From: Trypanosoma brucei
Taxonomy: Eukaryota
Direction of reading: 5' to 3'
Assembly (NCBI GenBank): GCA_000002445.1
Contig: CP000068.1
Span: 1,312,001 to 1,376,000 of the forward strand
Length of the DNA stretch: 64,000 nucleotides
Positions 20,681-56,156 of the stretch are shown piece after piece. How positions within the stretch are numbered: the stretch's first letter is position 1; every line of letters begins with the position of its first letter. The notes under the pieces are model-generated. The model was not told where the DNA came from, did no database searches, and saw only the letters and a program-made list of their open reading frames with translations. The translations under genes and the position numbers were made by a program.

Positions 20681-20720
20681 CACACACACATATATATATA
20701 TATATGTGTGTGTGTATATT
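20681..20720. repeat. (CA)n(TA)n(TG)n compound microsatellite in the strand-switch region
   Basis: cacacacacatatatatatatatatgtgtgtgtgtatat. Confidence 0.9.
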
Positions 20721-27900: not shown

Positions 27901-29100
27901 TACACCTTTGTGCCTCTGCTGATGGTCACATTATTCTTCACATTTACTGATAGTTCAATTTTATTATTGTGGTGTGATTGCAGGTGAAGCACCCCTTCAA
28001 GCCATTTTATGAGTGATTACACGGAAAAAAACATTATTAACACCAAATTGAGGGAAAAACCTGTGTGTGCCGTACCCTTCAGTGGCTGTACCATCCACTC
28101 TTGATTTGGTAGTGTAGTGGGTATAAAAAGAGTATTTATGACTAATTTCCACTCAACGTATTTCTTGGGTGGTTAAATTTATTTATTTTTCTTTGGACTG
28201 TATTTGTGGCTTCACGTCAATCTTTATTTTTAGCAGAGGACGCAACGAGAACTTGGTCTGGTTCGGAAGAAGATGTTTTTCTCCTACTTGTGGCTGTGCT
28301 TTTTGAGATATTGAAGTTTTTTCTTTTCAAAGATTGAGATGAGGAAATTTATTGCAAACAATGTTTAACATTCTGAAAGGTTATTTTGTTCATCTTTCCG
28401 GAAAGGGGAAGAGTGATTTTGGCCCTTAATCGACCGTGCTTGTGCTCCCAATGGGCGGATGATAGCAAAAATAAGAGACTTATGTTAAGAAATCATGAGA
28501 GGTGGTTCGAAGAAGAAGTTGAAAGTGACTAACTCATTTAAACGATGGAGCTGCTACACATCCTCTCATATCATGTTTTGTAGATGTCAGAGGGTGCATG
28601 TTACTTGATAGAACGTGAATACACTGAAACCTTTAAGCTTCTGTTTGAGGCATCGGAGAACGGCGTGGTTATAGGATCCTCTGTAATTCGCGGGGTACCA
28701 GTAACAAAAACGTTCGGTTCCATTGCCTCAAGCTTGTTACATACAATACTCGAATACCATTTCAAGGAAGTAAATGCCTCACTTGTCAAAATATACTTCG
28801 TGTTGAACCTTTTCCCTTTCCCCTTGGTGGATGCTTGTTCTTCAAAAGGGATATCGCGGGACGTATGCTTGGTTTTATGTTAGTTTGTGCGGTGTACGGA
28901 AATATCTAATATGGAATATGTCGCCCTCTTTGGCATTGTTCCCATTGTTATTTTGTTTACGCGGTTGCGCATTTTGTCTGATTCCTTGTCAACCTTAGTA
29001 CTGTATTTTCCTTTAGTTCCTGCAGCAACATTTGTGTGTGTGTGTGTGTGTGGCATTGATTCATTATGGTACACTGTGTGTTGGTTGAGCATTCTTCGTT

Positions 29101-29150
29101 TTAGTTGGTGTCTGCGTTTTGTTTGGGATTGTTTACTTTGTTCTTTGTAG
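29101..29150 (+). promoter_or_regulatory. polypyrimidine tract with AG; candidate trans-splice acceptor region for the first GRESAG4 copy
   Basis: ttgtttgggattgtttactttgttctttgtAG lies about 50 bp upstream of the ORF. The same element is present upstream of copy 2 at about 35636-35685. This is the usual kinetoplastid SL-addition signal architecture. Confidence 0.45.
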
Positions 29151-29201
29151 GACGTTTAGTTTACCTGTTTCACTAGCAGTACCGGCCAAAGTTTCCAAAT
29201 T

Positions 29202-35736: not shown

Positions 35737-38700
35737 ATGATTTCCATTCATCAGTCGATTCTCTTCGGTCGCGATGTTTCACGGGTCCGCATGGAGAATA
35801 GTCCCGTGCCGTGTATCAACCAGTTTCGCTGCCGCCTTACCATGTCATCGTTGTCGCTACTTTTGGTGTTTCTTGTGGTGGTTATGCCGCCGGTGGAAGC
35901 TTTGGATAATATAACGGTAAAGGTTTACTCACTTCTGTATCACCCTTTTGTTGGGAGGAGACTAATCGATTCTATGAATGCCGGTTTCAACGCGTCAATG
36001 GCAGCCCGTCAATGGACCGTTGCCCCAGGCATCAATGTTGAAGTTATCCACCCTGCATCGTATAGAATTCCGGGTCCGAGGTTCTTGCAGAGGGCAATAA
36101 ATGATAACAAGGATGAATTCTTTGTTGTGGTGGGACCGATGGGTGACGGTCAGTTGGCTGCCTCTCGTTCATTCTTGCAGAAGGAAAATTTGGTTGCATT
36201 TGCTCCATCCACTGGGGCAAGCTCTGTGCGCGGTTGGAGTCCCAACATCTACTTCCTGCGTGTGTCACCCACTGTCGAGCTTATTGCATTGATGCGTTTT
36301 GCTGTAACTCACCTGCGTTTACTACGGATCGGCTTCATGTACCTGCAGGGTCTCACCTTTGGGGATAGTGAATATGAGGTGGCCATAAAACTAATGTCTC
36401 ATTTGGGACGCGAGTTATGTGGTGTTTTCACAGTGGCAAGCTCGCATGGCAAAGGTGCAGCTGACTCCGATTTTGATGCCGTGTGGGACAAGTTCGTGGT
36501 GACCCGTCCACAGGGTGTGATCATGTTTGCTCCACCAGCAAAAGATGTGGTAAGATTTGTAGTAAAGATGCTGAATGACAGTCGTACCCAAGACGCCTAC
36601 TTTCTTGCTTCTTCGGTACTCGAATTGACGATTGCCTCTTGGAGCAGCGATATTGAGGCAGTCAATACAGCACTTGATCTCGGGCAGATTGTGCTCTCGC
36701 GCACGAATCCGCTGGCGACGGACACACAATACCAAGCAATCAGGCGTTTTCAGGACGATGCGAGATCATACCTGAGTGCTAATCCGGGCGTAACTATCTT
36801 CAGCGGCGCAGACGACTTCGAGCATCATTATGTGGATGGGAAGCTTATGGTGTATGGGTGGATCGTTGGTGAGGTGCTGTCACAGGCCCTGAGGAGTCGT
36901 GCCTGGATTAAGGACAGGGAGACCTTCAAGAAGTCTCTGTATAGTCAACGTCGGTACGCCGTCGATGAGCTTGTGTTTGGTGACTTTGGTGGTGAGTGTG
37001 AGGGTACAGCAGGTGAGCGCGGTGCTGTGTGTAACTGTAATCAGGGAGGAAACGTAGTGTACATCAACGTTGCTGGGAGGGATAATGTCTTGGAGGTGAT
37101 ACATGATGGACAGGTAGTTGTCGATTCATCACTCTGTTACCACGACGAGGTTCGGTTGCATTCCCCTGTGAATGGTTTATTGGTATTCATGCAGGATGAT
37201 CCGGTTGCGCAAAATGCGGCTGAGGAAATATATGATGGCGCCATTCCTCTCACTGGTGATGGCCGTCTGGGGCAAACTGATCGTTTTTTCTTACATATGC
37301 TGACATCAGAAACGGCTGAAGCATCCTCAGAGTTAGAGTCAGAATTGGGCACCAGGGCAGTGACGGCTGTGTTTGGAGTTGCCGATGATGCTATGCTATC
37401 CCTACAAACTACTGCTTTCATTGACCCCATCTCTCTCCTCCCGGGGTTACCTCATAGAGGGAGGAAAGTTATTTACCTATCTCCGACACTGGAGCAGCAG
37501 CTATTCGCGCTGGTAAAATATTTTGTCGGGTCAGGTTCTACGGTAGTGCACGCTGTCGTCTGCCGTGGTGATGTGGTTTCGATTGAAAGATTGCTTTATC
37601 TGATGTTGATGACTTTTGGCGGGCACATGGGAACAGTGGTAGGGCCTGATAGCAGTACAGATCTGGAAGGTTCGATGCCAGAAACCGGTGATGTGCTTGT
37701 CATAGGCCTGTCCAAGGACGACGTTGCCGTGGTAGCGTCTCACCTGGATCGTAACCCGGATGTTCGTGTCGCTGTCCTGTTCTTTGACGTAGCCCTACTA
37801 TACATTGAGTTTGTCAAAGCTTTCAAGAGCAGTTCAAGCGGTGGTCGGCTTCTTTTTGCAACGAGTCTGCCTCACTGGGCAGAGGCTAACTCGACTTCGG
37901 CTACTGTACAGAAGTTTCACGCGGCAGTGCCTGATTCGCCACGGTGGACACCTTTGTCACTGCTTGGTTTCGCGACCGGAAGATTCATTCAAACGCTGCT
38001 CTTTCATATGGACAAAGTGACACCGGATTCTATAATCAATGCAATATATACTCTCTCGGTCGTAAACAGCGACGACATGCGGTATGGTCCGTTCGTGGAG
38101 GAGCGATGCCCTTCAACCAAAGATGCGCCGGAGGGCGGCGACCACTTCTGTGGTAAGAATTATGGTGCGAGGCGACTTTCTGTGTGGTCGATGGACCGTG
38201 CGCTGAACGCTTCGGTGGCACCGCTGACATCGGGCGCAACGCCGTCTTTGGTGTACATAGACCCGTATTCGAAGGTGTTGTCAGGCGGCCGACTTGCCGG
38301 TGTCATCGTTGGAGTTCTTTTCATTTTACTGTTGCTTGTTGCTCTTTTGCTAGTGCTTCTTTGTCTGCGCCGCAGCGCACGCGACAATGACAGCGCGCCC
38401 AAGGAGCCAGCGGACCCTGTGACGCTAATTTTTACAGATGTAGAAAGCAGTACTGCACAATGGGCAGCACATCCCGAGCTGATGCCCGATGCTGTGGCCG
38501 CGCATCACCGTTTGATTCGCTCGCTGATCACCCACTACAGGTGTTATGAAGTGAAGACGGTTGGGGACTCATTCATGATCGCGTGCAAGAGTGCATTTGC
38601 CGCATCGAGTCTTGCCCAAGGCCTGCAGCAACGGTTTTTGTCTGCAGACTGGGGAACCAGTGCCTTCGACGAGTCCTATCGTGAGTTTGAGCAGCAGCGT

Positions 38701-39468
38701 GCAGATGACGACAATGAATACAAACCGCCGTCCGCGCGCCTCGACCCCGAAGTGTACCGGTCTCTCTGGAAAGGTCTACGCGTACGTATCGGGATACACA
38801 CCGGACTGTGCGAAATCCGACAAGATGAAGTGACGAAGGGCTACGACTACTACGGGAAGGTGACAGACATGGCCGCGCGGACGGAGAGCGTTGCGAACGG
38901 TGGCCAGGTAGTACTGACGCAAGCAACGTACTTTGCACTGAGCACAGCAGAGCGTGAACAGTTCGATGTGGTCTCCCTTGGCCGCATACCACTTGCTGGT
39001 GCGCCCCAACCTATGGAAGTATACCAGTTGAACGCGGTGCCCGGCCGTACCTTCGCTGCTCTTCGCCTTGACCGCGAGTTTGGCGACGACTTTGAAGATA
39101 GAATGAGTACCTCCACTGGAGACTCGAGTTCTCTCCGTAGCGGGATGAATGGAACAACGCAGATGATTGCAAGTTGCCTGCAGGCTGTGCTAGGCACTTT
39201 CACTGCAGCACAGCGACAGAAACTGCTGGTGCCTTTGTGCGAACGGTGGCGTGTCACGCTTCCCAGGACCGCACAGCTAACATGGGACGAGGGCTTTTGT
39301 GAAGATGTGATTCGTCGGATTTCAGTCAAGGTCGGTCGTGTCGTTGACCTCTGTGCAAACAGCGGTGGTGAGCGTACCGTCAGTACGCTGAGAAGTGCGT
39401 CTGTGATTATAATGTCGAACCGGCTTCGGGAATTTGAGGCAGAGGCAACCCAGAGCCCTGAAGCTTAG
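35737..39468 (+). CDS. GRESAG4: Receptor-type adenylate cyclase (GRESAG4 family), copy 2
   Basis: This copy is over 99% identical to copy 1 at the protein level. The substitutions cluster in the ectodomain (SGNIEAAN to SSDIEAVN, TLFSG to TIFSG, YVVDE to YAVDE, GKRGA to GERGA, ARRDN to AGRDN, GRTDR to GQTDR). The catalytic domain is identical. Confidence 0.9.
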   Translation: MISIHQSILFGRDVSRVRMENSPVPCINQFRCRLTMSSLSLLLVFLVVVMPPVEALDNITVKVYSLLYHPFVGRRLIDSMNAGFNASMAARQWTVAPGINVEVIHPASYRIPGPRFLQRAINDNKDEFFVVVGPMGDGQLAASRSFLQKENLVAFAPSTGASSVRGWSPNIYFLRVSPTVELIALMRFAVTHLRLLRIGFMYLQGLTFGDSEYEVAIKLMSHLGRELCGVFTVASSHGKGAADSDFDAVWDKFVVTRPQGVIMFAPPAKDVVRFVVKMLNDSRTQDAYFLASSVLELTIASWSSDIEAVNTALDLGQIVLSRTNPLATDTQYQAIRRFQDDARSYLSANPGVTIFSGADDFEHHYVDGKLMVYGWIVGEVLSQALRSRAWIKDRETFKKSLYSQRRYAVDELVFGDFGGECEGTAGERGAVCNCNQGGNVVYINVAGRDNVLEVIHDGQVVVDSSLCYHDEVRLHSPVNGLLVFMQDDPVAQNAAEEIYDGAIPLTGDGRLGQTDRFFLHMLTSETAEASSELESELGTRAVTAVFGVADDAMLSLQTTAFIDPISLLPGLPHRGRKVIYLSPTLEQQLFALVKYFVGSGSTVVHAVVCRGDVVSIERLLYLMLMTFGGHMGTVVGPDSSTDLEGSMPETGDVLVIGLSKDDVAVVASHLDRNPDVRVAVLFFDVALLYIEFVKAFKSSSSGGRLLFATSLPHWAEANSTSATVQKFHAAVPDSPRWTPLSLLGFATGRFIQTLLFHMDKVTPDSIINAIYTLSVVNSDDMRYGPFVEERCPSTKDAPEGGDHFCGKNYGARRLSVWSMDRALNASVAPLTSGATPSLVYIDPYSKVLSGGRLAGVIVGVLFILLLLVALLLVLLCLRRSARDNDSAPKEPADPVTLIFTDVESSTAQWAAHPELMPDAVAAHHRLIRSLITHYRCYEVKTVGDSFMIACKSAFAASSLAQGLQQRFLSADWGTSAFDESYREFEQQRADDDNEYKPPSARLDPEVYRSLWKGLRVRIGIHTGLCEIRQDEVTKGYDYYGKVTDMAARTESVANGGQVVLTQATYFALSTAEREQFDVVSLGRIPLAGAPQPMEVYQLNAVPGRTFAALRLDREFGDDFEDRMSTSTGDSSSLRSGMNGTTQMIASCLQAVLGTFTAAQRQKLLVPLCERWRVTLPRTAQLTWDEGFCEDVIRRISVKVGRVVDLCANSGGERTVSTLRSASVIIMSNRLREFEAEATQSPEA

Positions 39469-41733
39469 CGAAATAATGCACACTGCAGTTTTCTTTGTCT
39501 CACTTGGTTTTCCACTTTTCGTGTATATACACATAGCTTATTACATTCGCAATGCGCAATAGTTGACTAGTTGTTTCATCTACAATTTGTATACTCATAC
39601 CTTAAATGGGGGCAGGGACATGTACCCGCCTCTTCTTGATTTCTTATTAACTGATTCACTTCTTTTCTGTCTATTTTATTTTCGACGTGGCAATGAGCAA
39701 ATGTGTCTAGTCCCGTTCCTTCTTCCTTTCTTTTTTTCGTGAAGAATGCTGAAGCGGCAAGCAACCTCGTCAGGGTATTTGCTGGTTTTCGGTTCTGTTC
39801 TTCCGTAATCGTTTTCCCTCTCTATCCGTTGTGGCATGTTTACTGGGAAGATGTTCAACTCCTTTCTCTAACGTTCCCCCGTCGCCACCGCTTCTCATCT
39901 ACCTTTGATTTTTTTATTTTTTGGAGCAGGTGTTGCTAATAGTATGCGTGTTCGAGATCTGTCATTATTATTGTTATTATCATCACTGCTTTGTTGATTC
40001 CTGTTTGTAATCCCACTGCATTGTGACGCAATATCTCCAACTGAACCTTTGCAAGTGTCCATGCAACACCGTCGTGTTTGCTTTTGCATCCGACTGTTTT
40101 ACCTCACCTGTTACTCCTTTCTTTCTTTTGGGGTTGTCAGTTATTAGTGGGGCGATGCCGCTCGTGGCCGTTGTAGCGTTGTTTTTTTTTCCTATGCCGC
40201 ATGTACCTCCATAACGTCCCTAGTGGTTCAAAGGTACGGTAAACTGATCCTGTCCATCAGAGGAGAGGGGAGAGCGAGGTGTGGTTGCTGCTTGAACCGC
40301 TGCACATAAATTACCAGTGAGGCGCATAAATATCGGGGTGATGACACTCCGTGTTGCGTGTGCATATGTCACTTTTGTTGGCTTCTGCTTGCGTGAACTC
40401 ACAAGGAACCGCTGCTGTTTTCATCCCGGTTGTGGCGTCTGGTGTGTTACCTCCTCCTTTTTTTTATTTTTGCAGGGGGGTGGGTGCCACTACACGGCAG
40501 CTCTCGTCCATTGGTCTGTAGTTGTGCGATTTTATTTGATATTCGCTGCGGTTGTGGTGCTGTCAGCACTGCTATTGGCAGGTAACAAAACGTTAGGTGC
40601 GCATTCTTCCTCTATGAGATCAAAAAGTTGTTTACTACAGTATTTTGAATTTTGGGGGAGTGGGGAGAGGTACGTAAGGCAAATAAAAGAAAAGTGAGTT
40701 ATTGGTAATTTAAGTCTCGCTGGTCCAATGTGTTGGGGTTCTCAGTTTATCTCTTTCTGTGGTATCTAGGTGTTAATAACAACAGAAGAGGGTTATCAAG
40801 AAAACAGGCTGACGTCACCACTATGAACACTCCCTTCACTTTAATGCAGGCACTGCATGGAAAGGTTAAAAGTATGGAGGGAATTTGTTTATTAATCCCA
40901 CTGTACTGTGTTGGTGGATGAATTGTGAAAAACATTATGCGTCTTCTTTCTTTTTTTTTTTGCCGACTCTCACAAATCCGTGGTCAGCAGTGCATAAGCA
41001 GTTGCCCGTGCGACTTGTTTGCTGCCGCTTGCCCATGTCACAAGCGAAAGCTTAGGAGCTTTAGTCAATTCTTCTTCTGTCCAATTTACCATATGAAGGT
41101 GGAAGGCAAGTGCCAGTGATCTCATATGGTTTGTCGGAGTGTTCGATGGTGTGTTGTGTTGATTAAGTATGTTTTCCTCTTTCTATGCTGGAGAACCGTA
41201 TGGCGGATGCCACTTCTTTCAATATTTGCACATCGGTATAGCTCTTACTAAACTAACATGGAAAGCATTTTTAAATATCGTAGAATAGTGCTTGTATACT
41301 TCTTTCTGGCGCTCGCTTTTCTCCCTACCATTTCACTTGGGCCGATAATATTTAGGGTGGAGCTTGCAGTTTTTTCTACCTTTTCTTCTCTCCTGTGTAC
41401 CGCTGTACAGTTTACACATGTATTCATCGGAAACGGTGCACTCTTGCGCCCGCGAAGGCAACCAACTGGCTGCTGTGCTTTTAATTCGAAGAAAAAAATA
41501 ACTCTGTTCATTTTTCGCAACGGTAAAAGTGCCTTCTTCCTTACTTTTCATGACTTTAAAAAGCACATAGCAACCCCAAATACAATTCCTTCCGGAATTA
41601 TTGTACTCATTACCATTATCATTATCATTGGTGTTTTCTCAACTACACTGTGCTAAGAACAGTGGTAACGACGCATTTAACGGCTTAGGGGTCGTTTTAC
41701 GCCGCTTTATTTTTATTTTTTAATCGCGTTCAT

Positions 41734-43293: not shown

Positions 43294-44565
43294 GAACTCT
43301 GTTGCATTTAGCTCCTTTTTTTTTTAATGCGAGACCAGTTACTTATTTGAATAATCAAATCCGGTGTCGCGTATGTACTGGCTGATTTCTTTTTTTTCTT
43401 TTTTGATGTGTTCGTTCGTTTGAGGAATATTGGCGGAGGAACATCGTCAGCAAGTGGTTTGATTACTGTTCCTGCCACTCAATGGTGACAATGCACAGGA
43501 AAAAAAAGAATATGGGAGTGTATGTGCCGGAGTGACTTGGGGAAAATAATGTTAGTTTTTTTTTTAATATTACAGCTACTTTTTTCCACTAAACTTTTGT
43601 CGTGTGGGCTTTAAGGGACCAACGACTGAGGGATTGGATGTCAGCATTTGAAGTGGATTTACATGTTAGGCCTGGCCACGTGTGGGTTTTCAGCATTTTT
43701 CTTTTTTTTCTTTCGTAACATTAAATTGGAGAGAAGGAGAGCGAAGCAAACTCACTCGCTTTATTTGACGTTCCACCGCCATCATGTTTCTTTACTTTCT
43801 GCCGCTCACAGGCTCCTTTAATAGTTGGTGCTAGAGAGTCATCGTGGTCCATGTTCCAGTTCCTAAAATAACTGCACATAAACAATGCAAATCACTTGAA
43901 CCTTTTTTAAAGTATTCGGCGTTAGCTCAAATAAATATGCTCTCACCGCTACCTTAACACATCTGAAGCACTTAATCACATTCCCCGCCGTTTTTTTTCC
44001 TCCAGTTATTGCTATAAATGTTGCAATGCCTGTTGGTAGGCGTCAGCGGTATTCCGTTGTTTGAAGATTCTAATGGACTGTTGTGTTCATTTCCCTGCGT
44101 GGAATCGTGTGTTGAGTGCTTCTAACGTTAATACCTCTTTGTATTGTTGCCGCTGCATGCTTTTGAGACTCGCGAGTGATTTGTAACCCGGCATTGTAAT
44201 ACGGTATTTATTGGATGAAATTCTTCTGCAGATGCACTGTTCCATCTTTTTAACCCTTTTCTTCGTGTGTAGCATAAGACTGAAAGCCGTGTTGTTGAGA
44301 CTGTAGGTAGTCGTGTAACTTACTCACCACTGGATCACTTGTCACAGGTAGGCAAATAGTAAGGACAGTGTGGTTGAAGGAAGTTTTCCGTTTTTTTTTT
44401 TTTAAGGTGCGAATAATCGAGTGAAAGCTACTGTGTTCTCGTACATACTTGCACTTGATTGGTGTGCAGGTGCGGTTGTATCTGTTTGGCAGTTGCAGTA
44501 TTTGATCATTTGTTACTGTTAAGTGTTCATAACACTGAGGAAAAGACGGGCGTATCCATATTTGA

Positions 44566-47028
44566 GTGGCAATGTGTTTTATATTTGGTGTTGAGATGAG
44601 TAACCTAGCAAAGAGGCCAATGAGCCTGAGGAAGCTACCACAGCTTCTTTTGCTCATCATGATTGGTATTGCATTTGTTGCGGTTGAGTGCATTGGAGCT
44701 CCTGTTAAACTTCCCCGACGCGTGGATACTGTTGCCGGTCAATTTGGCGTGGAAGGCGAAACTAATGGATATCCAAATACTACGAGACTTACAGAACCCT
44801 ACGCATTGTGTCGAGGGAGGACAAACGATGAAATTTTAGTGGGGAGTTCCAACAGCTTCCGCAACTACTCTCGCAAAACAAAAGAAACTGGTACATATTT
44901 GAGATACAATGTAGGTGATAGCGTGATTTCAGGGTCCTCTACTATAAACAAACCTCGTAGTTGTGTCCGTCGCGGCTCTGGTAATCACACAATCATTTAC
45001 TTTGTTGACGACCAGAAAGATATTAAATATATTGTAGGGGATGATGTTTCGTCTTTCAGTGTGCCCACAAGCGGTTCCTTGAATGCTGTAGCTGTACATG
45101 AAGGCACTTTATACGTAACAGACCAGAATAACAAATCGGTGTGGAAGTGTGGTTTAGGCGGCGCCGGCAAGCCTCAAAGTTGTGAAGAGAAAAAATTTAC
45201 GAGCGTGACACTCGACGCAAAACCGGAAGGAATTGCCGTGACTTCTAAAGGAATTTTTGTTACCGCACGCGATTCATCTAACAAGGGAGCTTTGTTGTGG
45301 CTGGATATGAGCGGTGGTAACAGAAAGGGAAATGTAAGTGGTGGTTTTGTTGATGTATTCAGCACTGAGTCAGGTGTGTTATATGCAGCCACGGAGAAGG
45401 AATTGTACACCGTCACTGCCACCGACACTTCACTCAGTGTAACATCATTTGCAGGGAAGAATACGAGCCAGTGTTACTTCCCTACCAATGGAGAAGATAT
45501 TGTATTATGTGACAACTCACGACTGCTCGTCATTGAAGAATATGAGATGTATGTGACTTCGAAGGCCAAGCACACTATGCGTGCCTTAACTCTCCCTCCA
45601 GTCAACTTAACCGCCATCTTCCGTGGGCGACCAGCACCTGTAGGTTACCCCAACACAACAATTATGGAGCAGTTTGTGGCAAGTCTTACGGAGGATGTAA
45701 ATAAAGCACTCGGTACCAATGATAGCTATGTGGACCCCGATTCTGTGAGGGTGGATCCCGATACATGGGAAACGAATTTCACTGTTTTTGTTCAGCAAAC
45801 GCGTTTTGACAATACGACGGAGGAGAAATTACGGAGTCTGACATACACACAAACGGATAAGACTGTTGACGAGTATTACGGTCTTACTGATGAGTATGTG
45901 TACATTGATACCGTCCTTGTGCCATTCTGTGACGATGCAAGCCTTGTCACTATCCAGCGTGCGTTGGCGCGTGAAGCTGGACGTGCACTGAATTTCTCTT
46001 TGGTATACGCTGACAAGCCCATAACCTTTGGTAGTGACGTTGCGGAGAATGTCACTGCAGTAAAGCTTTTGATGCCTCATTCATTCAAGAACGCAACGAC
46101 ACCTAAGCAGCTATCGGCTGCGAACCTCACTGACTTTGCGCACAACTTGGTCAAGGACTTGCGTGCTTCAGACACTCGTGTCGATATCACATTCCCCGAT
46201 CCCCCGTTTAATTTTTCAGCTGTTGTCCCTGAACGTGAGCAGGAAGTACGTTGGTTTGTCCATGGGAAAGTAATGAAGCAGCTTGAGATTTGTGAGAGAC
46301 TTGGTAGCCAGGGCGATGCGGCCGTTATTGCAGCTGCAGCTGATGCGACTGCTCGAGGTAAGGCCAATGTCACATTGAATACCAGCGGAGTCAAGGCAAA
46401 TGATACAGGGGTTGGTCCCAACACCACAAATACCGCTGGTGGGGCCAATACTACTGCTAATGTTGCCGCTAATGGCACTGCCAATGTTATTGTGAATCCC
46501 TCCACCAATGCTACTCCAACTGGAACCACCAATGCTAGTGTCACTAATACTACCGAGAGAGCTGTTCCTGTTGTTGCCCCTACTCAACCTTCTAATGGAT
46601 ATGCGGAGTGTCGATCCGCTATAACCAACCGCACGGAAACACAGAACATGGAACCACCTTACGACAGGAAACACCGATATGAGGTATTCCTACCTAAAAA
46701 GTATGACTTCAATGTGTCATGGTGCGTGGACATCATTGACTGGCGTGACTTGGACGAGATGTTGAATAACCGCACAGATGAGGTGGTGGAAAAGTCCCTT
46801 TCATGGTGCGGCCACGGTTGCATTATTGCGTTTGCGGTGGTAGGTTCCCTGATTGCTGCGTGTCTAGTGGTGCTGGCTGTGGTGTTGACATCGAAGAGGA
46901 GGCGTCTTGCTGCTGTGGTTGCTCCACCGCGCCCAAAGTTTGTATCAACAGTGGAAGATGATGATGAAGATCGTGTATCAAACATCGGTGTGCCACTGAC
47001 CGATGGGAAGGGAACCACCGCACCGTAA
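44566..47028 (+). CDS. Type I membrane glycoprotein, copy 1; possible beta-propeller/NHL-like ectodomain with an Asn/Thr-rich stalk
   Basis: The 820-aa ORF has a probable signal peptide (MSLRKLPQLLLLIMIGIAFVAVECIGA) and many N-x-S/T sites. NHL-like strands include PEGIAVTSKGIFVTARD and GTLYVTDQNNKSVWKC. The membrane-proximal stalk is N/T-rich (NTTNTAGGANTTANVAANGTANVIVNPSTNATPTGTTNASVTNTT). There is a single TM (IIAFAVVGSLIAACLVVLAVVL) and a short acidic cytoplasmic tail. The family is not recognised. Confidence 0.7.
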   Translation: MAMCFIFGVEMSNLAKRPMSLRKLPQLLLLIMIGIAFVAVECIGAPVKLPRRVDTVAGQFGVEGETNGYPNTTRLTEPYALCRGRTNDEILVGSSNSFRNYSRKTKETGTYLRYNVGDSVISGSSTINKPRSCVRRGSGNHTIIYFVDDQKDIKYIVGDDVSSFSVPTSGSLNAVAVHEGTLYVTDQNNKSVWKCGLGGAGKPQSCEEKKFTSVTLDAKPEGIAVTSKGIFVTARDSSNKGALLWLDMSGGNRKGNVSGGFVDVFSTESGVLYAATEKELYTVTATDTSLSVTSFAGKNTSQCYFPTNGEDIVLCDNSRLLVIEEYEMYVTSKAKHTMRALTLPPVNLTAIFRGRPAPVGYPNTTIMEQFVASLTEDVNKALGTNDSYVDPDSVRVDPDTWETNFTVFVQQTRFDNTTEEKLRSLTYTQTDKTVDEYYGLTDEYVYIDTVLVPFCDDASLVTIQRALAREAGRALNFSLVYADKPITFGSDVAENVTAVKLLMPHSFKNATTPKQLSAANLTDFAHNLVKDLRASDTRVDITFPDPPFNFSAVVPEREQEVRWFVHGKVMKQLEICERLGSQGDAAVIAAAADATARGKANVTLNTSGVKANDTGVGPNTTNTAGGANTTANVAANGTANVIVNPSTNATPTGTTNASVTNTTERAVPVVAPTQPSNGYAECRSAITNRTETQNMEPPYDRKHRYEVFLPKKYDFNVSWCVDIIDWRDLDEMLNNRTDEVVEKSLSWCGHGCIIAFAVVGSLIAACLVVLAVVLTSKRRRLAAVVAPPRPKFVSTVEDDDEDRVSNIGVPLTDGKGTTAP

Positions 47029-48153
47029 GTCACGTACGTTGTAGCTGTATGTGTAACATCACATTCCTTGTGTTTGTGTGGTGTGTTTGCATGCATAGAA
47101 TATAATCGGACTAGAAAACACTTTATTTGAGCGTACCCCTGTCCTTGAGTGACACTCTCAGGGGGATGACGCTGCTTAACATTGTGGAGAGGGAGAGACA
47201 CAACAGAGAGTAGAGTAATATGTTTGTGTGCAAGAGATAATAGAAAGGAGGAGGGGTGGTGTGACTCTGTGTCTTGCTTATGTTATTACCTTCCCTCACT
47301 GTTCCCCCCCACACACACATACACACGTACCGGAATCCGTAATATACACGGTATTTGTAGGGGCTGTCCTTTTATTTTCTCTTCCATTGTTTGCTTTGCA
47401 TGTCCCTCACAGTTGTGGTAGAATGAGTGCTCGCACCTGGTGTGTGAGTGTGGGAAGGTTTCATGCACGAGTGTGTATCACTAAAAATGCGGTCAGTAGA
47501 TAACAAAGTGTGTGTTAATCACCTTGTGTGAGTATTTAAATCATATTTGACTCCACCGGGTCTGTGCTTGCTTCTTTCTCTTTGTTTTGATTAACTGGGA
47601 CGCGTTTGACCTTTTTGCAGTGTGCGTTTATATCTGCTGTGCCCGGCATATGGCACACCTTTCTTTCACTACGCTATGTGTTCTGAAGCCCCATTACTCT
47701 CTTTCCGCGAGTACCCCAATTGCATATACTCCTCTTCACTGCTTCCCTCTTTTTTTGTTTAATTTATCTTTTCTTAATTACGTAACTTCTGGTAGTGTCA
47801 GTAATATTCAGACAGTTGAGAGAGAGAGGGGGGGGGGTGGTGAGTTTACCAACCAAGTAAGCCAGCGGTCAGCCCCTTCTGAGGCCCGTGTGGAGTTGCC
47901 TGATGTTTCCATGCACGCATAAGAGGCAGGTAATTTTCCTCGTGACCTTTTTTTTTATGCTGTCTATCTGTCAACTTGTTTCTAATGCTGCTGGAAATAA
48001 TATTTCCTATTTAAAATAGGTGAAGGTTTACGTGCCCGCATAGGTGCACCTGTATGTGTTTTATGAGGTTATATTGTAGTTATGTCAAATATTGTGATCG
48101 TAACTTATATTATTTTCGTCCATTCTAAATGGTTGTGATGGATTTTTCTTTTC

Positions 48154-48495
48154 GTGCTTCTTCATTTGTTAATTAAAAGTGAAAAGATGACGGACACGTT
48201 TGAAGGTATTTTAAAAGAAATCCACAGTCTTGAGGAGATGAACGACATGTACTCCTACCAAATTGCCTCTCTGATGGTGGAGGTTAAGGAGAATGGAGGG
48301 GACACTAAAAAGGAAGAGGAAGTGCTTGAATTAAAGCGTCGGCTGAGCGAGAACCTGAAATGTGTCAGTGAACTTGATGTCCTCTTTTATAAATACCCCT
48401 GGAAGAAATATGCGCACCTTCGGAGGAAGTCCCATTCGGCATCGTCTGGGGGGGGGGCAGTCATAAATTTTCCTGACCAGGGGAAAACCCCCTAA
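48154..48495 (+). CDS. possible small coiled-coil protein; weak
   Basis: The ORF lies in the unit-1-specific segment. The likely start is MTDTFEGILKEIHSLEE. It has a short charged helical stretch and no recognised family. It could be a spurious ORF. Confidence 0.2.
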   Translation: MLLHLLIKSEKMTDTFEGILKEIHSLEEMNDMYSYQIASLMVEVKENGGDTKKEEEVLELKRRLSENLKCVSELDVLFYKYPWKKYAHLRRKSHSASSGGGAVINFPDQGKTP

Positions 48496-51400
48496 TGAAT
48501 TGGTAACGGAAACTCGTAGAATGTGCTATTGGGGTGACTGAACTAACTCCATCATGTACTGGGTATTTTCCCAATTTTCTGAGCATGCGTATGTGAGTGT
48601 ATAATGCGGCGGGTGATACACGCCGTCGGAATAGCGCAAGTGGCTGCTTAATAATTAAGGCAGCCCAAGGCCTGCGTGGTTTTCCGCATTTTATATTTAT
48701 TTTTGTGATGTGCATCTTATGGCTATGCAAAATAATGATGAAACCTTATTGATTGGCTATTTAACTCCTCTCTTTTACTTCCTTTCCCGCCCGATAGAAT
48801 GCGTTACTTCCATCGCTTTAACCACGTAATAACTTTTGTTTTCCCTGATTTCCTTTATAGTTACTTTGGTTGTTTCCCGGTCTCGGTGCTGATCAACTTA
48901 TTTAAATTATCCTTGTTATTTTCATTTTGAATATTGGTGTTTCTATTATATCTTGGTTGACTACGAACAGATCCACCCTTTTTTCTTTTTTGCTTTAATG
49001 TAACTGAACAGTTATCTCATGAGAAATTTGTATCAGCTACGTTAGCGCCAGTAATTTTGAGCAAGCGTCCCATAATAACAGTAGTGAGGCCTTTTAAACC
49101 GGCATCACCAAGAAATGGGTTATGGAGGGTAATTTAAAGTTGTTGGCCCTCCGCGCTGATCTGGAAGCGGGACGATACGCATCGGGTGAGGCACGAAGCT
49201 GTTAATTAATGAAAGAGGAACTGGAAATATCTCAGAAGTTATGCCAAGCGTTACGGCTCGGGGGTGTCTTCGGTTGCCTGGGGGCAGGGAAAAGCACTAC
49301 TTAGTCATGGAGTTGCCGCTACAAACTGCGGTGCATACGTATGTTGTTTTGAGTGTGGCATGCTTCTTACAAAGCACTGGAGTGCGGAGTATTATTAGTT
49401 CGGGAGTTGTGTGGACAGGTCGTGCGGTGAATAGGGGCATGAAGGGATAGTGCAATAGTGTGGGTTTGTGTGTCATCGTGCAGCCGAAGTTAATATGCCA
49501 CTGCTCTCGCATCTTCGCACATTTACGTGTTTCGTGACATGATTGATATGTGTGTGTGTGTGTGTGTGTGCCGAGGGAGGTGGTCATTTGGCATACCACA
49601 TTTTCGGGAGTAATGTACCCTCGGCGATGTAGTGTAAATCTTTGACAACTTAGTTAACACTGGCAGTGAAGTGGAATCAGCATCACTTGCAGTTGCCCAG
49701 AGGTGTGTTGAGCCATCACGGGAACGTGTATATACCGATTTACAGAGATTGATCATTTTACATGGAAGAGCACTGTAATGTACAGTTTCCAAAATACTGC
49801 TATGTGAATGCAAGCCGCGGCCGCGGGTGGCGTTCGTATCTCCTGAAGAGTGACTGAGTGTTTAAAGATCATAGTTCCTGATGCATGATCACCTCAATAT
49901 GAAACTATTAGGCACGCTCCGTAGTTTTCCCTACGGACCTCCCCGTGCGTTGATGCTCATTAGCCGGAGCGGCACCCTCTGTGAGCTGCATTTAGTGTGC
50001 CATGGTGATAACTCACACTGTCAATGCACAATACGTGCGGATATGTGGGGACGGCCGCCTACTTTGAGTGGCAGCGCAGTTCTCTCTTTTCGTACCCACA
50101 GTGTGACTGAGACAGCGGCAATGAACCATTTTGGCACGTTGCATAAGACACCCGTTAGTTTGCCGTGCTGATACAGAAATGGGGTAAGGGTTTATGGCTT
50201 CCACATTTCAGGTATTACCGATGGTCCCAAGGAACACTTATGCAGTTTGCACCTGGGAACGGTAGTCACATACTGGCAACCTTTTTAACAGTCATATCGC
50301 GGAACCGTGCTTTAATGTCGTGCATCTTTAATTCATTAAATATTTAGCAGGAAGATGGCATAAATAGGTAGAAGGAAGACTATCGGCATTGTCACTTGGG
50401 TACGCTGGAATGTCGATTTTGTCTCTTACGGAACGATGGCTAGGGTCAAATCTGTATGACGGCCCTTTCCCCTTTGTGCCTTAGGACTCGGTTGGTGGTT
50501 ATGTGTGTTTGCATGCCGGTTCCCACTGCTGGTGCCGGAGAGCGTTATCGCAGTAAGTCGAATTATGCGTACCAAAGACTATCGCGTTTTGGTTTGCTTC
50601 ACCATATCCGGAAGCAGGAAGTTTGTGTTGACTGCATCCATGGGGAGGGGGACGGTAATTATGTAGTTGCGGTTGACATACGGCTGAGGGGCAGTATTTG
50701 GAAATATGGATGTATCGACGCGGTCATTGCCTACGCTTTGGTGGTTTATTTACAGTCATGTGCCACTGACCGCGGTAAGTTTGTTGGGCTTTCATTATAG
50801 CCGCATTGTGTCCTTCCCGTCACAGCATAACATCAGATTTTCCAAAAGGGGTTCCCTGCTGTGTGTTAAGGCCGCGCATGTGAGAAACATGATACGAGCT
50901 GGCATCAATCTATTTATTATGAACATTTCGCATTTGAACGCGGTGGACACAATCGCCGCCCCCGTTACTGTGTTACGCAGCATTAGCATCACTTCTTAAT
51001 TTCGGGCCTCCCATGGCGACTTTTTTACATTTACGAGCAGCACCGGAAGCTATGGAAACATTTTCCTCCAGTTATTGCTATAAATGTTGCAATGCCTGTT
51101 GGTAGGCGTCAGCGGTATTCCGTTGTTTGAAGATTCTAATGGACTGTTGTGTTCATTTCCCTAGCGTGGAATCGTGTGTTGAGTGCTTCTAACGTTAATA
51201 CCTCTTTGTATTGTTGCCGCTGCATGCTTTTGAGACTCGCGAGTGATTTGTAACCCGGTATTGTAATACGGTATTTACTGGATGAAATTCTTCTGCAGAT
51301 GCACTGTTCCATCTTTTTAACCCTTTTCTTCGTGTGTAGCATAAGACTCAAAGCCGTGTTGTTGAGACTGTAGGTAGTCGTGTAACTTACTCACCACTGG

Positions 51401-51638
51401 ATCACTTGTCACAGGTAGGCAAATAGTAAGGACAGTGTGGTTGAAGGAAGTTTTCCGTTTTTTTTTTTTTAAGGTGCGAATAATCGAGTGAAAGCTACTG
51501 TGTTCTCGTACATACTTGCACTTGATTGGTGTGCAGGTGCGGTTGTATCTGTTTGGCAGTTGCAGTATTTGATCATTTGTTACTGTTAAGTGTTCATAAC
51601 ACTGAGGAAAAGACGGGCGTATCCATATTTGACTGGCA

Positions 51639-54095
51639 ATGTGTTTTATATTTGGTGTTGAGATGAGTAACCTAGCAAAGAGGCCAATGAGCCTGAGGAA
51701 GCTACCACAGCTTCTTTTGCTCATCATGATTGGTATTGCATTTGTTGCGGTTGAGTGCATCGGAGCTCCTGTTAAACTTCCCCGACGCGTGGATACTGTT
51801 GCCGGTCAATTTGGCTTTGATGGAACCACTGATGGGAGTTCGAATGTTTCAATGCTTTCGTCACCCTACGCATTGTGTCGAGGGAGGACAAACGATGAAA
51901 TTTTAGTGGGGAGTTCCAACAGCTTCCGCAACTACTCTCGCAAAACAAAAGAAACTGGTACGTTCCTCAGGGGTGGCCCAACTGGAGGACTCGTCTCCGC
52001 AGACGCTAAAATTAGCAAGCCACGTAGTTGTGTCCGTCGCGGCTCTGGTAATCACACAATCATTTACTTTGTTGACGATCAAAATGGTCTGAAATATATA
52101 AATGACAACGAAATTCAGCACGTTACTGTAGGGAATGGTCTTTCGTTAACTTCCGTCGCTATTTATGAGAAAGATTTATACGTAACAGACCAGAATAACA
52201 AATCGGTGTGGAGGTGTAATGTCGGCGGTGCCGGCAAGCCTCAAAATTGTGAAGAGAAAAAATTCACGGGCCTGACGTTTACTGCAAAACCGGAAGGAAT
52301 TGCCGTGACTTCTAAAGGAATTTTTGTTGCCGCACGCGATTCATCTAACAAGGGAGCTTTGTTGTGGCTGGATATGAATGGTGGTGGCTCAAAGGGAAAT
52401 GTAAGTGGTGGTTTTGTTGATGTATTCAGCACTGAGTCAGGTATGTTATATGCAGCCACGGAGAAGGAATTGTACACCGTCACTGCCACCGGCTCTGCAT
52501 TCAGCGTAACATCATTTGCAGGGAAGAATACGAGCTCATGTTACTCTCATGCCAATGGAGAAGATATTGTATTATGTGACAACTCGCGACTGCTCGTTAT
52601 TGAAGAATATGAGATGTACGTGACTTCGAAGGAGAAGCATACTATGCGTGCCTTAACTCTCCCTCCAGTCAACTTAACCGCCATCTTCCGTGGGCGACCA
52701 GCACCTGTAGGTTACCCCAACACAACAATTATGGAGCAGTTTGTGGCAAGTCTTACGGAGGATGTAAATAAAGCACTCGGTACCAATGATAGCTATGTGG
52801 ACCCCGATTCTGTGAGGGTGGATCCCGATACATGGGAAACGAATTTCACTGTTTTTGTTCAGCAAACGCGTTTTGACAATACGACGGAGGAGAAATTACG
52901 GAGTCTGACATACACACAAACGGATAAGACTGTTGACGAGTATTACGGTCTTACTGATGAGTATGTGTACATTGATACCGTCCTTGTGCCATTCTGTGAC
53001 GATGCAAGCCTTGTCACCATCCAGCGTGCGTTGGCGCGTGAAGCTGGACGTGCACTGAATTTCTCTTTGATATACGCTGACAAGCCCATAACCTTTGGTA
53101 GTGACGTTGCGGAGAATGTCACTGCAGTAAAGCTTTTGATGCCTCATTCATTCAAGAACGCAACGACACCTAAGCAGCTATCGGCTGCGAACCTCACTGA
53201 CTTTGCGCACAACTTGGTCAAGGACTTGCGTGCTTCAGACACTCGTGTCGATATCACATTCCCCGATCCCCCGTTTAATTTTTCAGCTGTTGTCCCTGAA
53301 CGTGAGCAGGAAGTACGTTGGTTTGTCCATGGGAAAGTAATGAAGCAGCTTGAGATTTGTGAGAGACTTGGTAGCCAGGGCGATGCGGCCGTTATTGCAG
53401 CTGCAGCTGCTGCGACTGCTCGAGGTAAGGCCAATGTCACATTGAATACCAGCGGAGTCAAGGCAAATGATACAGGGGTTGGTCCCAACACCACAAATAC
53501 CGCTGGTGGGGCCAATACTACTGCTAATGTTGTCGCTAATGGCACTGCCAATGTTATTGTGAATCCCTCCACCAATGCTACTCCAACTGGAACCACCAAT
53601 GCTAGTGTCACTAATACTACCGAGAGAGCTGTTCCTGTTGTTGCCCCTACTCAGCCTTCTAATGGATATGCGGAGTGTCGATCCGCTATAACCAACCGCA
53701 CGGAAACACAGAACATGGAACCACCTTACGACAGGAAACACCGATATGAGGTATTCCTACCTAAAAAGTATGACTTCAATGTGTCATGGTGCGTGGACAT
53801 CATTGACTGGCGTGACTTGGACGAGATGTTGAATAACCGCACAGATGAGGTGGTGGAAAAGTCCCTTTCATGGTGCGGCCACGGTTGCATTATTGCGTTT
53901 GCGGTGGTAGGTTCCCTGATTGCTGCGTGTCTAGTGGTGCTGGCTGTGGTGTTGACATCGAAGAGGAGGCGTCTTGCTGCTGTGGTTGCTCCACCGCGCC
54001 CAAAGTTTGTATCAACAGTGGAAGATGATGAAGAAGATCGTGTATCAAACATCGGTGTGCCACTGACCGATGGGAAGGGAACCACCGCACCGTAA
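51639..54095 (+). CDS. Type I membrane glycoprotein, copy 2; paralogue of 44566-47028
   Basis: The 818-aa ORF is nearly identical to copy 1 from about residue 330 to the C-terminus, with differences only at AADATARG to AAAATARG, DDDEDR to DDEEDR and a few others. Residues about 60-300 are mosaically divergent. Confidence 0.7.
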   Translation: MCFIFGVEMSNLAKRPMSLRKLPQLLLLIMIGIAFVAVECIGAPVKLPRRVDTVAGQFGFDGTTDGSSNVSMLSSPYALCRGRTNDEILVGSSNSFRNYSRKTKETGTFLRGGPTGGLVSADAKISKPRSCVRRGSGNHTIIYFVDDQNGLKYINDNEIQHVTVGNGLSLTSVAIYEKDLYVTDQNNKSVWRCNVGGAGKPQNCEEKKFTGLTFTAKPEGIAVTSKGIFVAARDSSNKGALLWLDMNGGGSKGNVSGGFVDVFSTESGMLYAATEKELYTVTATGSAFSVTSFAGKNTSSCYSHANGEDIVLCDNSRLLVIEEYEMYVTSKEKHTMRALTLPPVNLTAIFRGRPAPVGYPNTTIMEQFVASLTEDVNKALGTNDSYVDPDSVRVDPDTWETNFTVFVQQTRFDNTTEEKLRSLTYTQTDKTVDEYYGLTDEYVYIDTVLVPFCDDASLVTIQRALAREAGRALNFSLIYADKPITFGSDVAENVTAVKLLMPHSFKNATTPKQLSAANLTDFAHNLVKDLRASDTRVDITFPDPPFNFSAVVPEREQEVRWFVHGKVMKQLEICERLGSQGDAAVIAAAAAATARGKANVTLNTSGVKANDTGVGPNTTNTAGGANTTANVVANGTANVIVNPSTNATPTGTTNASVTNTTERAVPVVAPTQPSNGYAECRSAITNRTETQNMEPPYDRKHRYEVFLPKKYDFNVSWCVDIIDWRDLDEMLNNRTDEVVEKSLSWCGHGCIIAFAVVGSLIAACLVVLAVVLTSKRRRLAAVVAPPRPKFVSTVEDDEEDRVSNIGVPLTDGKGTTAP

Positions 54096-56156
54096 GTCAC
54101 GTGCGTTGTAGCTGTATGTGTAACATCACATTCCTTGTGTTTGTGTGGTGTGTTTGCATGCATAGAATATAATCGGACTAGAAAACACTTTATTTGAGCG
54201 TACCCCTGTCCTTGAGTGACACTCTCAGGGGATGACGCTGCTTAACATTGTGGAGAGGAAGAGACACAACAGAGAGTAGAGTAATATGTTTGTGTGCAAG
54301 AGATAATAGAAAGGAGGGGGGGGGGTGGTGTGACTCTGTGTCTTGCTTATGTTATTACCTTCCCTCACTGTTTCCCCCCCCCCCACATACACACGTACCG
54401 GAATCCGTAATATACACGGTATTTGTAGGGGCTGTCCTTTTATTTTCTCTTCCATTGTTTGCTTTGCATGTCCCTCACAGTTGTGGTAGAATGAGTGCTC
54501 GCACCTGGTGTGTGAGTGTGGGAAGGTTTCATGCACGAGTGTGTATCACTAAAAATGCGGTCAGTAGATAACAAAGTGTGTGTTAATCACCTTGTGTGAG
54601 TATTTAAATCATATTTGACTCCACCGGGTCTGTGCTTGCTTCTTTCTCTTTGTTTTGATTAACTGGGACGCGTTTGACCCTTTTGCGGTGTGCGTTTATA
54701 TCTGCTGTGCCCGGCATATGGCACACCTTTCTTTCACTACGCTATGTGTTCTGAAGCCCCATTACTCTCTTTCCGCGAGTACCCCAATTGCATATACTCC
54801 TCTTCACTGCTTCCCTCTTTTTTTTGTTTAATTTATCTTTTCTTAATTACGTAACTTCTGGTAGTGTCAGTAATATTCAGACAGTTGAGAGAGGGGGGGG
54901 GGGAGGAGTTTACCAACCAAGTAAGCCAGCGGTCAGCCCCTTCTGAGACCCGTGTGGAGTTTCCTGATGTTTCCATGCACGCATAAGAGGCAGGCATTTT
55001 TTATTCGTAGTTTGTTTTATAATTTCAGTTGTGCCTTGGAGTTTCGTATGAGAATTTGTGCCCAGAGGGGCTGCTGATGAATGTTTTTTTTTTTAATTTG
55101 TTTTTGTCCTTTGCTCTGCTTAAAGGAACGGGGGTATTGATGACATTTTTGCTTTTTTTTCCAAAAAAAAGGCGTAGCGGGTGTAGCGAGGACGATTCGT
55201 TGTGAAATATATTGAGAGGTTGAACTGTTGTTGTTGGTATATTTTTTTTTGTGTGGTGCGTATGCAAATGCATGACTAACATTCTCATTGACGGCGGAGT
55301 CATAACGTTATCATTGACGGAAAAAGACAGTTTAGATTTTATTATATGATATTTGTGGCCGGGAATGCTTCCAAGCCACAACAGTACAGTTCTATCTTGA
55401 CCCCCACGGTGCAATAGTGGTGTACGGCGTTATTTAAATTTGGAATTTCAACCTTATCAAATTGTGTTTTTCTTGCAACTTAATAGTTTTGGTTGCGGAA
55501 ATACGAGCAAAATACTTGTCGGGAATAAATTTGATATCCACGAAAGAATTGTCATTAAAATTGAGCGGTTCCCTTTATGGAAGCGAGTGCAATGACCGGT
55601 GTCGGAGTGGCCATAGCAGTTGAGACTTTAATGTGAATGATTATGAGTCAACAATCTGTTCCACTAGACAGTTAATGGGCAGGCAGTAAAAGCGGACACA
55701 AAAATACAGTCAATTTGTAAAAACTCCACAGGGAGGACGGCAACGGCAGAGGGTTTGAGAGGAGCCAGAGAAATGATAACTTTTGCTGCCAATGAGATAA
55801 ACTCACCATAACCTCGTGTCAATGGTGCGTTAACAAAGGGATTCGCCCCAATATCTAATCAGTGAGTTAACTTAGGTATAATATGTATGTGCAAACGCAG
55901 CCTTTGATTTTTTTTTTATCGATGTCGTCGTGTTTCTCTTCCCCTCGAAAAAAAAAGAAGGAAAGCCGACGATACCCTTCGGGAGTTAAGAGGATGGTTT
56001 GGTGTCCCTTCTGTGCGTCCAACGAGGTGCGTGCACTTTCCACCGCTAAGTTCTGCGCCTCGCTCACAACCATAAAACAAGAGTCTTTTTTTTCTTTTTG
56101 AATAATGCGCATGCAAACGATCCCGCTTTTCCCCCCTTCCCGTTGGCATTTTCCCC

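Follow-up and report, generated by a model that had tools for sequence, protein, structure and literature searches.

How can two neighbouring genes be almost identical over most of their length and still differ at about half of the nucleotides in a few short blocks? This question is raised by a locus on chromosome 5 of Trypanosoma brucei. It lies in a stretch of 64,000 nucleotides (nt) of contig CP000068.1 (assembly GCA_000002445.1, positions 1,312,001 to 1,376,000, forward strand), which is called the window here and whose coordinates are used unless a contig is named. A preliminary description, made from the letters of the window, reported two duplicated surface glycoprotein genes with patchy divergence in the N-terminal ectodomain, and proposed segmental gene conversion or diversifying selection as the cause. 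The genes, called copies A and B here, are assigned below to the flagellar protein FLA3. The answer given here is that the pair probably evolves in concert by gene conversion between the copies, while ancient islands, each with two states, escape conversion.

Two intact open reading frames (ORFs) were recognized on the plus strand in the ORF list of the window, i.e., at 44572-47028 and 51639-54095. Their proteins matched the entries XP_845127.1 and XP_845128.1 from chromosome 5 of T. brucei brucei TREU927 exactly. By these matches, the ORFs are the already-characterised FLA3/FLA2BP/ESP8 genes Tb927.5.4570 and Tb927.5.4580, which had the earlier bacterial artificial chromosome (BAC) names Tb05.5K5.210 and Tb05.5K5.220. 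The neighbours, i.e., an upstream guanine-deaminase-like amidohydrolase and two receptor adenylate cyclases, are consistent with the TREU927 chromosome 5 locus. The genes had been described as intact ORFs of 820 amino acids (aa). Both ORFs are intact, but the length was overstated, as the reading was begun at a GTG at 44566, two codons upstream of the ATG at 44572. Because the eukaryotic start is this ATG, the proteins have 818 aa, in agreement with the database entries. The term tandem array was also too strong, i.e., there are only two copies, not strictly head to tail, and about 3.1 kb of unique DNA intervenes. The units were placed as follows.

43995-47937, plus strand: duplicated DNA segment, unit 1, spanning the 5' flank, the coding sequence of FLA3/FLA2BP-1 and some 0.9 kb of the 3' flank (self-BLAST).
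44572-47028, plus strand: coding sequence of copy A, Tb927.5.4570 (FLA3 / FLA2BP-1 / ESP8), 818 aa, exact match to XP_845127.1.
47938-51060, no strand: unique spacer separating the duplicated units, about 3.1 kb, without a long ORF.
51061-55001, plus strand: duplicated DNA segment, unit 2 (self-BLAST).
51639-54095, plus strand: coding sequence of copy B, Tb927.5.4580 (FLA3 / FLA2BP-2), 818 aa, exact match to XP_845128.1.

In self-BLAST, the 3.95-kb units showed 95.4% identity over 3958 columns. The flanks (44056-44571 and 47029-47940) were 95-100% identical between A and B in 100-nt windows, and identity collapsed beyond the unit edges. A short candidate gene, an ORF of 113 aa with many charged residues, was found in the spacer at 48154-48495. 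It had no Pfam match. Neither tandem repeats nor tRNAs were found in the 64-kb window.

The copies, 818 codons each counted from the common ATG, were aligned without gaps and differed at 157 nucleotides and 73 amino acids. Residues 60-332 make up 33% of the protein and hold 69 of the 73 amino-acid differences (binomial p = 3e-28). Past residue 332 only four residues differ (478, 591, 632, and 798), which bears out the near-identity reported from about residue 330 to the C-terminus, and the identical and substituted blocks quoted earlier for residues about 60 to 300 were all present as written. Over residues 59-335 the differences formed 59 runs, where 104.7 +/- 6.2 would be expected; in 20,000 shuffles the number never fell to 79 or below. 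The 828 nt hold 150 differences, yet they include nine stretches of 30 nt or more without any difference (longest 99 nt); the shuffles gave 0.33 such stretches on average and 4 at most. The differences are clustered far beyond chance. Three major islands and a zone of sparse, younger differences were delimited.

44749-44796, plus strand: island 1 of copy A, codons 60-75, loop from the N-terminal strand to blade 1, 23 of 48 nt differ.
44893-44955, plus strand: island 2 of copy A, codons 108-128, last part of strand 1D with the inter-blade loop from 1D to 2A, different at 36 of 63 nt.
45010-45108, plus strand: island 3 of copy A, codons 147-179, the C and D strands of blade 2 with the loop from 2D to 3A and a portion of strand 3A, different at 49 of 99 nt.
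45145-45576, plus strand: sparse, younger differences of copy A, codons 192-335 (copy B equivalent 52212-52643).
51816-51863, plus strand: island 1 of copy B.
51960-52022, plus strand: island 2 of copy B.
52077-52175, plus strand: island 3 of copy B.

The blocks between the islands (96, 54, and 36 nt) had no difference in 186 nt. Codons 1-59 and 336-818 were 99-100% identical, with a synonymous divergence (dS) of 0.006-0.024, i.e., 0.006 in codons 336-818. The sparse zone of codons 192-335 is an intermediate stratum with dS of 0.16, nonsynonymous divergence (dN) of 0.09 and a transition to transversion count of 30:12. Its minor patches lie at codons 192-195, 211-215, 247-251, 285-289, and 300-305.

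The islands were then characterised by their substitutions. In the three main islands together, the proportion of synonymous sites that differ (pS) was 0.77, i.e., saturated, the nonsynonymous proportion (pN) was 0.44, and transitions to transversions were 52:56. Of codons that encode the same residue in both copies, 17 of 23 (74%) were spelled differently in the islands. This measure is independent of substitution pathways, and it was equal to that of FLA3 against its relative FLA1BP (13/19) or against the T. congolense gene (13/21). Elsewhere in the pair it was 0/61 between the islands and 2/459 in the C-terminal part. The amino-acid identity of A and B in the islands (0.34) falls inside the range between Trypanosoma species (0.22-0.45), and that of the rest of the beta-propeller described below is 0.91. 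As their synonymous sites are saturated, the islands are far older than the rest of the gene and were not recently mutated. All 28 N-x-S/T sequons, including N69 within island 1, are kept in both copies. The islands are thus old, homologous and constrained. A compensated frameshift was considered as their cause and rejected, i.e., nucleotide identity was 0.43-0.52 at offset 0 against about 0.15-0.35 elsewhere, and the other frames carry stops. No consistent compositional difference was found between the two versions of the islands.

These values bear on diversifying selection by point mutation on exposed, host-facing loops, one of the two causes proposed in the preliminary description. In its favour, the protein is of the bloodstream stage and open to surface labelling, and the differences are in its surface loops. 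However, pS exceeds pN, synonymous sites are saturated, 74% of same-residue codons differ and the sequons are conserved; each island has two states, which are invariant across subspecies with one exception of 96%, as given below. This explanation is very improbable, and point-mutational diversifying selection is effectively excluded.

The islands are sharp-edged, in frame and equal in length, which may also recall an import of patches. In this case a diverged donor, possibly a third FLABP-like gene or pseudogene, would have passed several short segments to one copy by segmental gene conversion at an ectopic site. Recombination on short homology exists in T. brucei (PMC1904282), and partial conversion is common in its arrays (PMC1855330). 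Against this, neither type is nearer to FLA1BP or to any outgroup, and no further copy of an island was found when the 64-kb window with its spacer, the FLA1BP/FLA2 locus and the loci of T. congolense were searched. A single saturated tract would also alter the synonymous sites between the islands, yet 0 of 61 were changed, so at least three separate micro-imports, or an import followed by re-homogenisation, would be needed. Such an import is improbable. FLA1BP was tried as a donor and rejected, as it had no nucleotide match and its identity to the islands (0.24-0.44) was not above that of A to B.

To follow the islands beyond the window, the locus was recovered from T. b. gambiense DAL972, T. 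equiperdum OVI (copy 1 only) and T. b. equiperdum IVM-t1, and protein sequences from the homologous TREU927 chromosome (BAC) were compared. Every island was either of the type of copy A (a-type) or of the type of copy B (b-type). Each type was 100% identical in nucleotides across the genomes sampled, with the one exception of the b-type island 3 of T. b. gambiense copy 2 (96%). Both major types are kept on each of the homologous TREU927 chromosomes. Some copies are chimaeric. In IVM-t1, copy 2 has an a-type island 1 inside an otherwise b-type gene. The copy 2 of T. b. gambiense keeps the b-type as far as codon 250, interrupted by small a-type patches at 171-172 and 176, and is a-type over codons 251-305, and its copy 1 shows the b-type at codons 300-305. 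The islands thus act as cassettes with two states that can be exchanged. The word hypervariable therefore does not suit them, as each has only two forms that are invariant among the sampled copies apart from the 96% case. Many alternatives per segment, as in the variant surface glycoproteins (VSGs), were not seen in the sampled genomes.

The recurrence of the types also bears on a further explanation, i.e., that one copy is a decaying pseudogene or that the pattern is an assembly artefact. Near-identical repeats are generally hard to assemble. However, both types recur in independent assemblies and in the BAC sequence of the homologous chromosome, both ORFs are intact without indels, and both products are separate entries in the bloodstream-form surface proteome. 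Decay and artefact have the smallest chance of all explanations weighed here and are effectively excluded; the earlier statement that both ORFs are intact holds.

The gene conversion of the preliminary description is well in line with these data, i.e., the flanks are 95-100% identical, the 3' two-thirds of the genes are 99-100% identical, and chimaeric copies occur in other genomes. The 3.95-kb units evolve in concert, and in the mechanism proposed this would come about through repeated conversion between the copies. Conversion would have erased divergence in the 5' flank, the signal peptide, the C-terminal two-thirds, the 3' flank and the inter-island blocks of 36-96 nt, where homogenisation is seen directly. 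Three major and several minor islands would have kept two ancient, in-frame, homologous versions, a and b, and these persist in the present genes. Now and then an island would be swapped, whole or in part, between the copies, as the chimaeric copies suggest within the limits of their assemblies. Conversion anchored in the identical blocks may drive both homogenisation and swapping. Such anchoring is plausible because recombination in T. brucei has a minimal efficient homology of about 31 bp and is impeded by mismatches, and heteroduplex is resolved by short-patch repair that is able to switch direction within a few bp (Barnes and McCulloch 2007, PMC1904282). The inter-island blocks all exceed this threshold.

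The structure of the protein was predicted next to place the islands. The AlphaFold2 model of copy A, built from the family alignment, had a hydrophobic N-terminal helix at residues 22-36, followed by a beta-propeller at 50-350. The propeller has 25 strands, i.e., six blades of four strands and one N-terminal strand, with predicted local distance difference test (pLDDT) values mostly of 85-94. Past it, an alpha/beta domain (360-545), long helices, a disordered N/T-rich stalk (600-676) and a small Cys-containing domain were modelled. A transmembrane helix was predicted for residues 748-776 of copy A and 748-777 of copy B, with a cytoplasmic tail of about 42 aa. The two domains lie on the DNA as follows.

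44719-45621, plus strand: predicted six-bladed NHL-type beta-propeller, copy A codons 50-350 (AlphaFold2, Foldseek; copy B equivalent 51786-52688).
46813-46899, plus strand: predicted transmembrane helix, copy A codons 748-776 (AlphaFold2; copy B equivalent 53880-53966; identical in both).

The best specific Foldseek matches were to the NHL domain of Brat (TM-score 0.67-0.71), and the motif LNAVAVHEGTLYVTDQNNKSVW agrees with the A-B-C strand pattern of the NHL repeat. The Pfam NHL family (PF01436) was sub-threshold, with 17.4 bits in copy A and 13.7 bits in copy B at a cut-off of 20. All 28 sequons of each copy are extracellular. The models suggest the FLABP architecture, in which an N-terminal hydrophobic signal is followed by a large extracellular region with the NHL propeller, and one transmembrane helix near the C-terminus leads to a short cytoplasmic tail. 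The predicted folds of A and B are identical, which also speaks against a decaying copy; the strand map and confidence profile of the B model are the same as those of A, but this is weak evidence, as the alignment was common to both models.

The FLABP family was found by an exhaustive HMMER search of 1.8 billion proteins, the kind of family search that had been recommended for this pair. It gave 21 representatives, of which the nameable ones are all kinetoplastid and the remaining ones are assemblies from sequencing runs. FLA1BP was closest to copy A, with 47% identity (E = 6.5e-158). Given the full protein and the family alignment, a word-indexed protein search retrieved no more than the query cluster and T. 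congolense and missed FLA1BP, and with an alignment of the N-terminal domain it missed even the cluster of the query. Negatives of such a search are unreliable for proteins with a low-complexity stalk, which probably swamped the word filter.

The blades of the propeller were set by the order of the strands, with the NHL motif at residues 170-195 as a check, and the variable residues were mapped on them. Loops between blades, i.e., D-to-A loops with the N-terminal connector included, were variable at 36 of 75 positions and the rest of the propeller region at 33 of 226 (odds ratio 5.4, p = 2e-8). This agrees with the expectation that the patches would fall on propeller loops. Of non-strand residues 33% were variable and of strand residues 15% (p = 3e-4), and the inner strands A and B varied at only 6 of 72 positions. 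Island 3 is exceptional, as it also replaces both outer strands of blade 2. In the predicted structure the islands thus lie mainly in inter-blade loops and outer strands. In a propeller, D-to-A loops by convention sit on one face, and the islands may therefore occupy one face plus the rim.

Much of the biology of these genes is published. FLA3 was described as a 160-kDa, N-glycosylated, bloodstream-specific protein of the flagellum attachment zone (FAZ), sensitive to PNGase F, whose knock-down detaches the flagellum (Woods 2013, PMC3546053). The same authors noted that variation is confined to small stretches among the first 250 residues from the N-terminus (PMC3546053). In the surface-labelled proteome the name is ESP8, both copies were entered separately in the bloodstream form and the family tag in the supplement is 'Fam73' (Gadelha 2015, PMC4587319). 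The current names are FLA2BP-1 and FLA2BP-2, partners of FLA2 (de Liz 2026, PMC12831198; Sunter and Gull 2016, PMC4827413), and Tb927.5.4580 is called FLA2BP-2 in PMC12831198. In this later work FLA2BP, like FLA1BP, is a FAZ protein of the flagellar membrane (PMC4827413, PMC12831198). The name FLA3 was applied to Tb927.8.4110 too, and nomenclature and topology disagree among PMC3546053, PMC4827413 and PMC12831198. FAZ localisation, the requirement of the protein for flagellum attachment and the interaction with FLA proteins are taken here from the literature (PMC3546053, PMC4587319, PMC12831198).

From these sources and the models, FLA3 can be regarded as a heavily N-glycosylated type-I membrane protein whose NHL propeller would pair with FLA2 across the cleft between flagellum and cell body and so hold the flagellum to the cell in bloodstream forms. 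The earlier reading as a surface-membrane glycoprotein is confirmed by this identity. Its "host-exposed or ligand-binding surface" is not what the literature shows, yet the protein was labelled in surface proteomics (PMC4587319). In the searchable literature, no analysis of the divergence between A and B was found, and there was no match for FLA3 with gene conversion, nor for Fam73. The genes, their function and the patchy N-terminal variation are already known. The synonymous saturation, the two-state islands, the reshuffling among strains and the mapping to inter-blade loops appear to be undescribed.

Relatives and the partner were compared with the pair. The TREU927 FLA1BP copies (Tb927.8.4050, Tb927.8.4100) are identical, and the T. 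vivax FLABP copies have six scattered residue differences; neither pair has islands. In T. congolense IL3000, the FLABP gene, an ORF of about 200 aa and a trans-sialidase-like gene of 778 aa occur in a shared order at L005:1876-13081 and L006:1928-13157. Because the same neighbours stand in the same order on both contigs, the 99%-identical T. congolense copies are probably haplotypes or a large segmental duplicate, not tandem paralogues. On chromosome 8 of IVM-t1, a unit of FLA2 and FLA1BP (6.5 kb) is tandemly repeated with 99.3% identity (L003:6179-12693 and L003:15757-22253). Its FLA2 copies differ mainly by indels in a proline-rich linker, i.e., 12-nt and 30-nt length differences; besides the linker, a single substitution was seen close to the 3' end, and the NHL region has a single 1-nt gap. 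The FLA2 NHL domains are identical save this gap (L003:8233), which is probably an error of the long-read assembly. Co-diverged partners, i.e., FLA2-1 with FLA2BP-1 and FLA2-2 with FLA2BP-2, are not supported, as these NHL domains are not dimorphic.

Why the islands persist is a separate matter from how the rest is homogenised. The preferred reason is that conversions which erase an island are selected against, and the parasite would so keep two propeller isoforms; its chance is put a little short of even. It is favoured because whole-island replacement is very recent, both types survived to saturation, and sister pairs have no islands. It is possible, though doubtful, that the islands are alternative surface patches on one propeller face, actively maintained by selection as a stable paralogous dimorphism. 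Such dimorphism could reflect antibody pressure on the only extracellular FAZ components. It could also reflect functional specialisation of the isoforms, for example for FAZ positions, life-cycle stages or a second partner.

The same persistence could arise without selection for isoforms. Substitutions in weakly constrained loops would have crossed the mismatch threshold at which heteroduplex is rejected, the segments would have become refractory to conversion, and they would have drifted to saturation. Mismatches impede T. brucei recombination (PMC1904282), physicochemical character and sequons are kept with dN/dS below 1, and the islands coincide with loops, outer strands and the least conserved columns of the family. 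This neutral mismatch barrier accounts for the loop location as well as selection does. However, whole-island replacement and the breakpoints in island 3 fall within the very recent radiation of T. brucei subspecies, so the barrier is leaky, and a leaky barrier should not let both types reach synonymous saturation. Three other duplicated FLABP pairs, whose loops are equally unconstrained, have no islands, and the identical blocks of 36-56 nt between 50%-diverged islands must still stay identical. Neutral divergence is a serious but rather unlikely alternative.

Several points weigh against concerted evolution with islands kept apart by selection. Four genomes were sampled, i.e., TREU927, DAL972, OVI and IVM-t1. 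The reciprocal pattern of DAL972 copy 1, in which there is an assembly gap, is possibly an assembly chimaera. Indel errors occur in the long-read assembly of IVM-t1, and the chimaeras in both genomes are possibly artefacts in part. IVM-t1 also seems to have lost the b-type island 1, and the two types are therefore not retained without exception. Copies A and B have equal lengths in loops where every other species varies in length, which sits uneasily with an age comparable to species splits and suggests that the A/B split is younger than those splits, although synonymous sites are saturated. The ratio dN/dS is below 1, but with saturated dS it is uninformative and gives no direct evidence of selection. 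The propeller face was assigned from strand order, not from coordinates. The island columns are the least conserved of the family (entropy 2.52 against 2.05, p = 7e-6), as the neutral model predicts likewise. Finally, the partner FLA2 is not dimorphic, which also fits neutral divergence, so there is no matched ligand pair that would account for two isoforms.

The distinction has practical weight. Of all FAZ proteins, only FLA/FLABP pairs span the extracellular gap that separates the flagellum from the cell body, and bloodstream T. brucei cannot do without them. In current work one copy is cloned, FLA2BP is tagged generically or both copies are knocked down jointly. If the isoforms are functionally or antigenically distinct, experiments must tell the FLA2BP copies apart, and the dimorphic face would mark a surface that either binds FLA2 or is exposed to immunity. 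Were the islands mere neutral relics, the locus would still be a clean natural example of how short the effective tracts of conversion and their homology anchors are on core chromosomes of T. brucei. In both cases the point is incremental, on a known gene, and not a new system.

Other features of the window were also recorded. A second tandem duplication lies at 28167-34444 and 34703-40982, with 99.6% identity, and each unit has a receptor-type adenylate cyclase ORF of 1243 aa (29202-32933; 35737-39468). The two cyclase coding sequences have 10 substitutions and no saturated islands. Eight of the substitutions are nonsynonymous, all of them in residues 304-513, i.e., the extracellular periplasmic-binding-protein-like domain. 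The region of about 19650-29200 looks like a divergent strand-switch region, and the GC skew changes its sign near 22 kb. ORFs of at least 250 aa are all on the minus strand left of about 19650 (protein kinase, major vault protein, ELO elongase and three without Pfam match) and all on the plus strand right of about 29200. No long ORF, tRNA or tandem repeat was found in the 9.5 kb of this putative strand-switch region. A chromosome-internal ORF of 377 aa with a VSG_B domain lies at 62081-63214, and in T. b. gambiense a VSG_B gene is likewise found downstream of the locus (L002:20470-21504).

The FLA3 pair can finally be set beside known systems. FLA1BP and the FLABPs of T. congolense, T. vivax, T. 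grayi and T. theileri are like FLA3 in signal peptide, NHL propeller, alpha/beta domain, stalk and transmembrane helix. The juxtamembrane motif KRRRLAAVVAP is common to the FLABPs including FLA3, and identity is 37-47%. FLA3 differs from the others by an additional N/T-rich insert in the stalk. The other FLABP duplicates are identical or about 99% identical and, unlike the FLA3 pair, have no divergence islands.

Partial gene conversion is common in tandem arrays of T. brucei (Jackson 2007, PMC1855330). As in the FLA3 pair, flanks and coding sequences of these arrays are homogenised, and chimaeras indicate partial conversion (PMC1855330). The gene identifiers of the pair were not found in that paper. 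Its islands differ from those arrays in being saturated and much older than their background, beyond scattered variant motifs.

Divergence islands that escape conversion in duplicated genes reportedly have a theoretical treatment by Teshima and Innan, and Plasmodium MSP1 has a block-wise allelic dimorphism. The FLA3 pair shares with these cases the sharp-edged old blocks, the raised dS, the homogenised framework and the two forms per block. Unlike in MSP1, the forms are paralogous copies on one chromosome, not alleles, and immune or other balancing selection would be hypothetical in FLA3. Mosaic VSG formation is similar in its short-tract, homology-anchored conversion within a surface glycoprotein gene. 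FLA3, by contrast, is an 'invariant' adhesion protein with two states per island, without hypervariability or an expression-site context, and no donor archive was seen in the loci searched. The islands fit best among concertedly evolving duplicates, whose marks are near-identical flanks and coding sequences at synonymous sites, sharp-edged islands of raised dS and dN and, with the assembly caveat, chimaeric copies.

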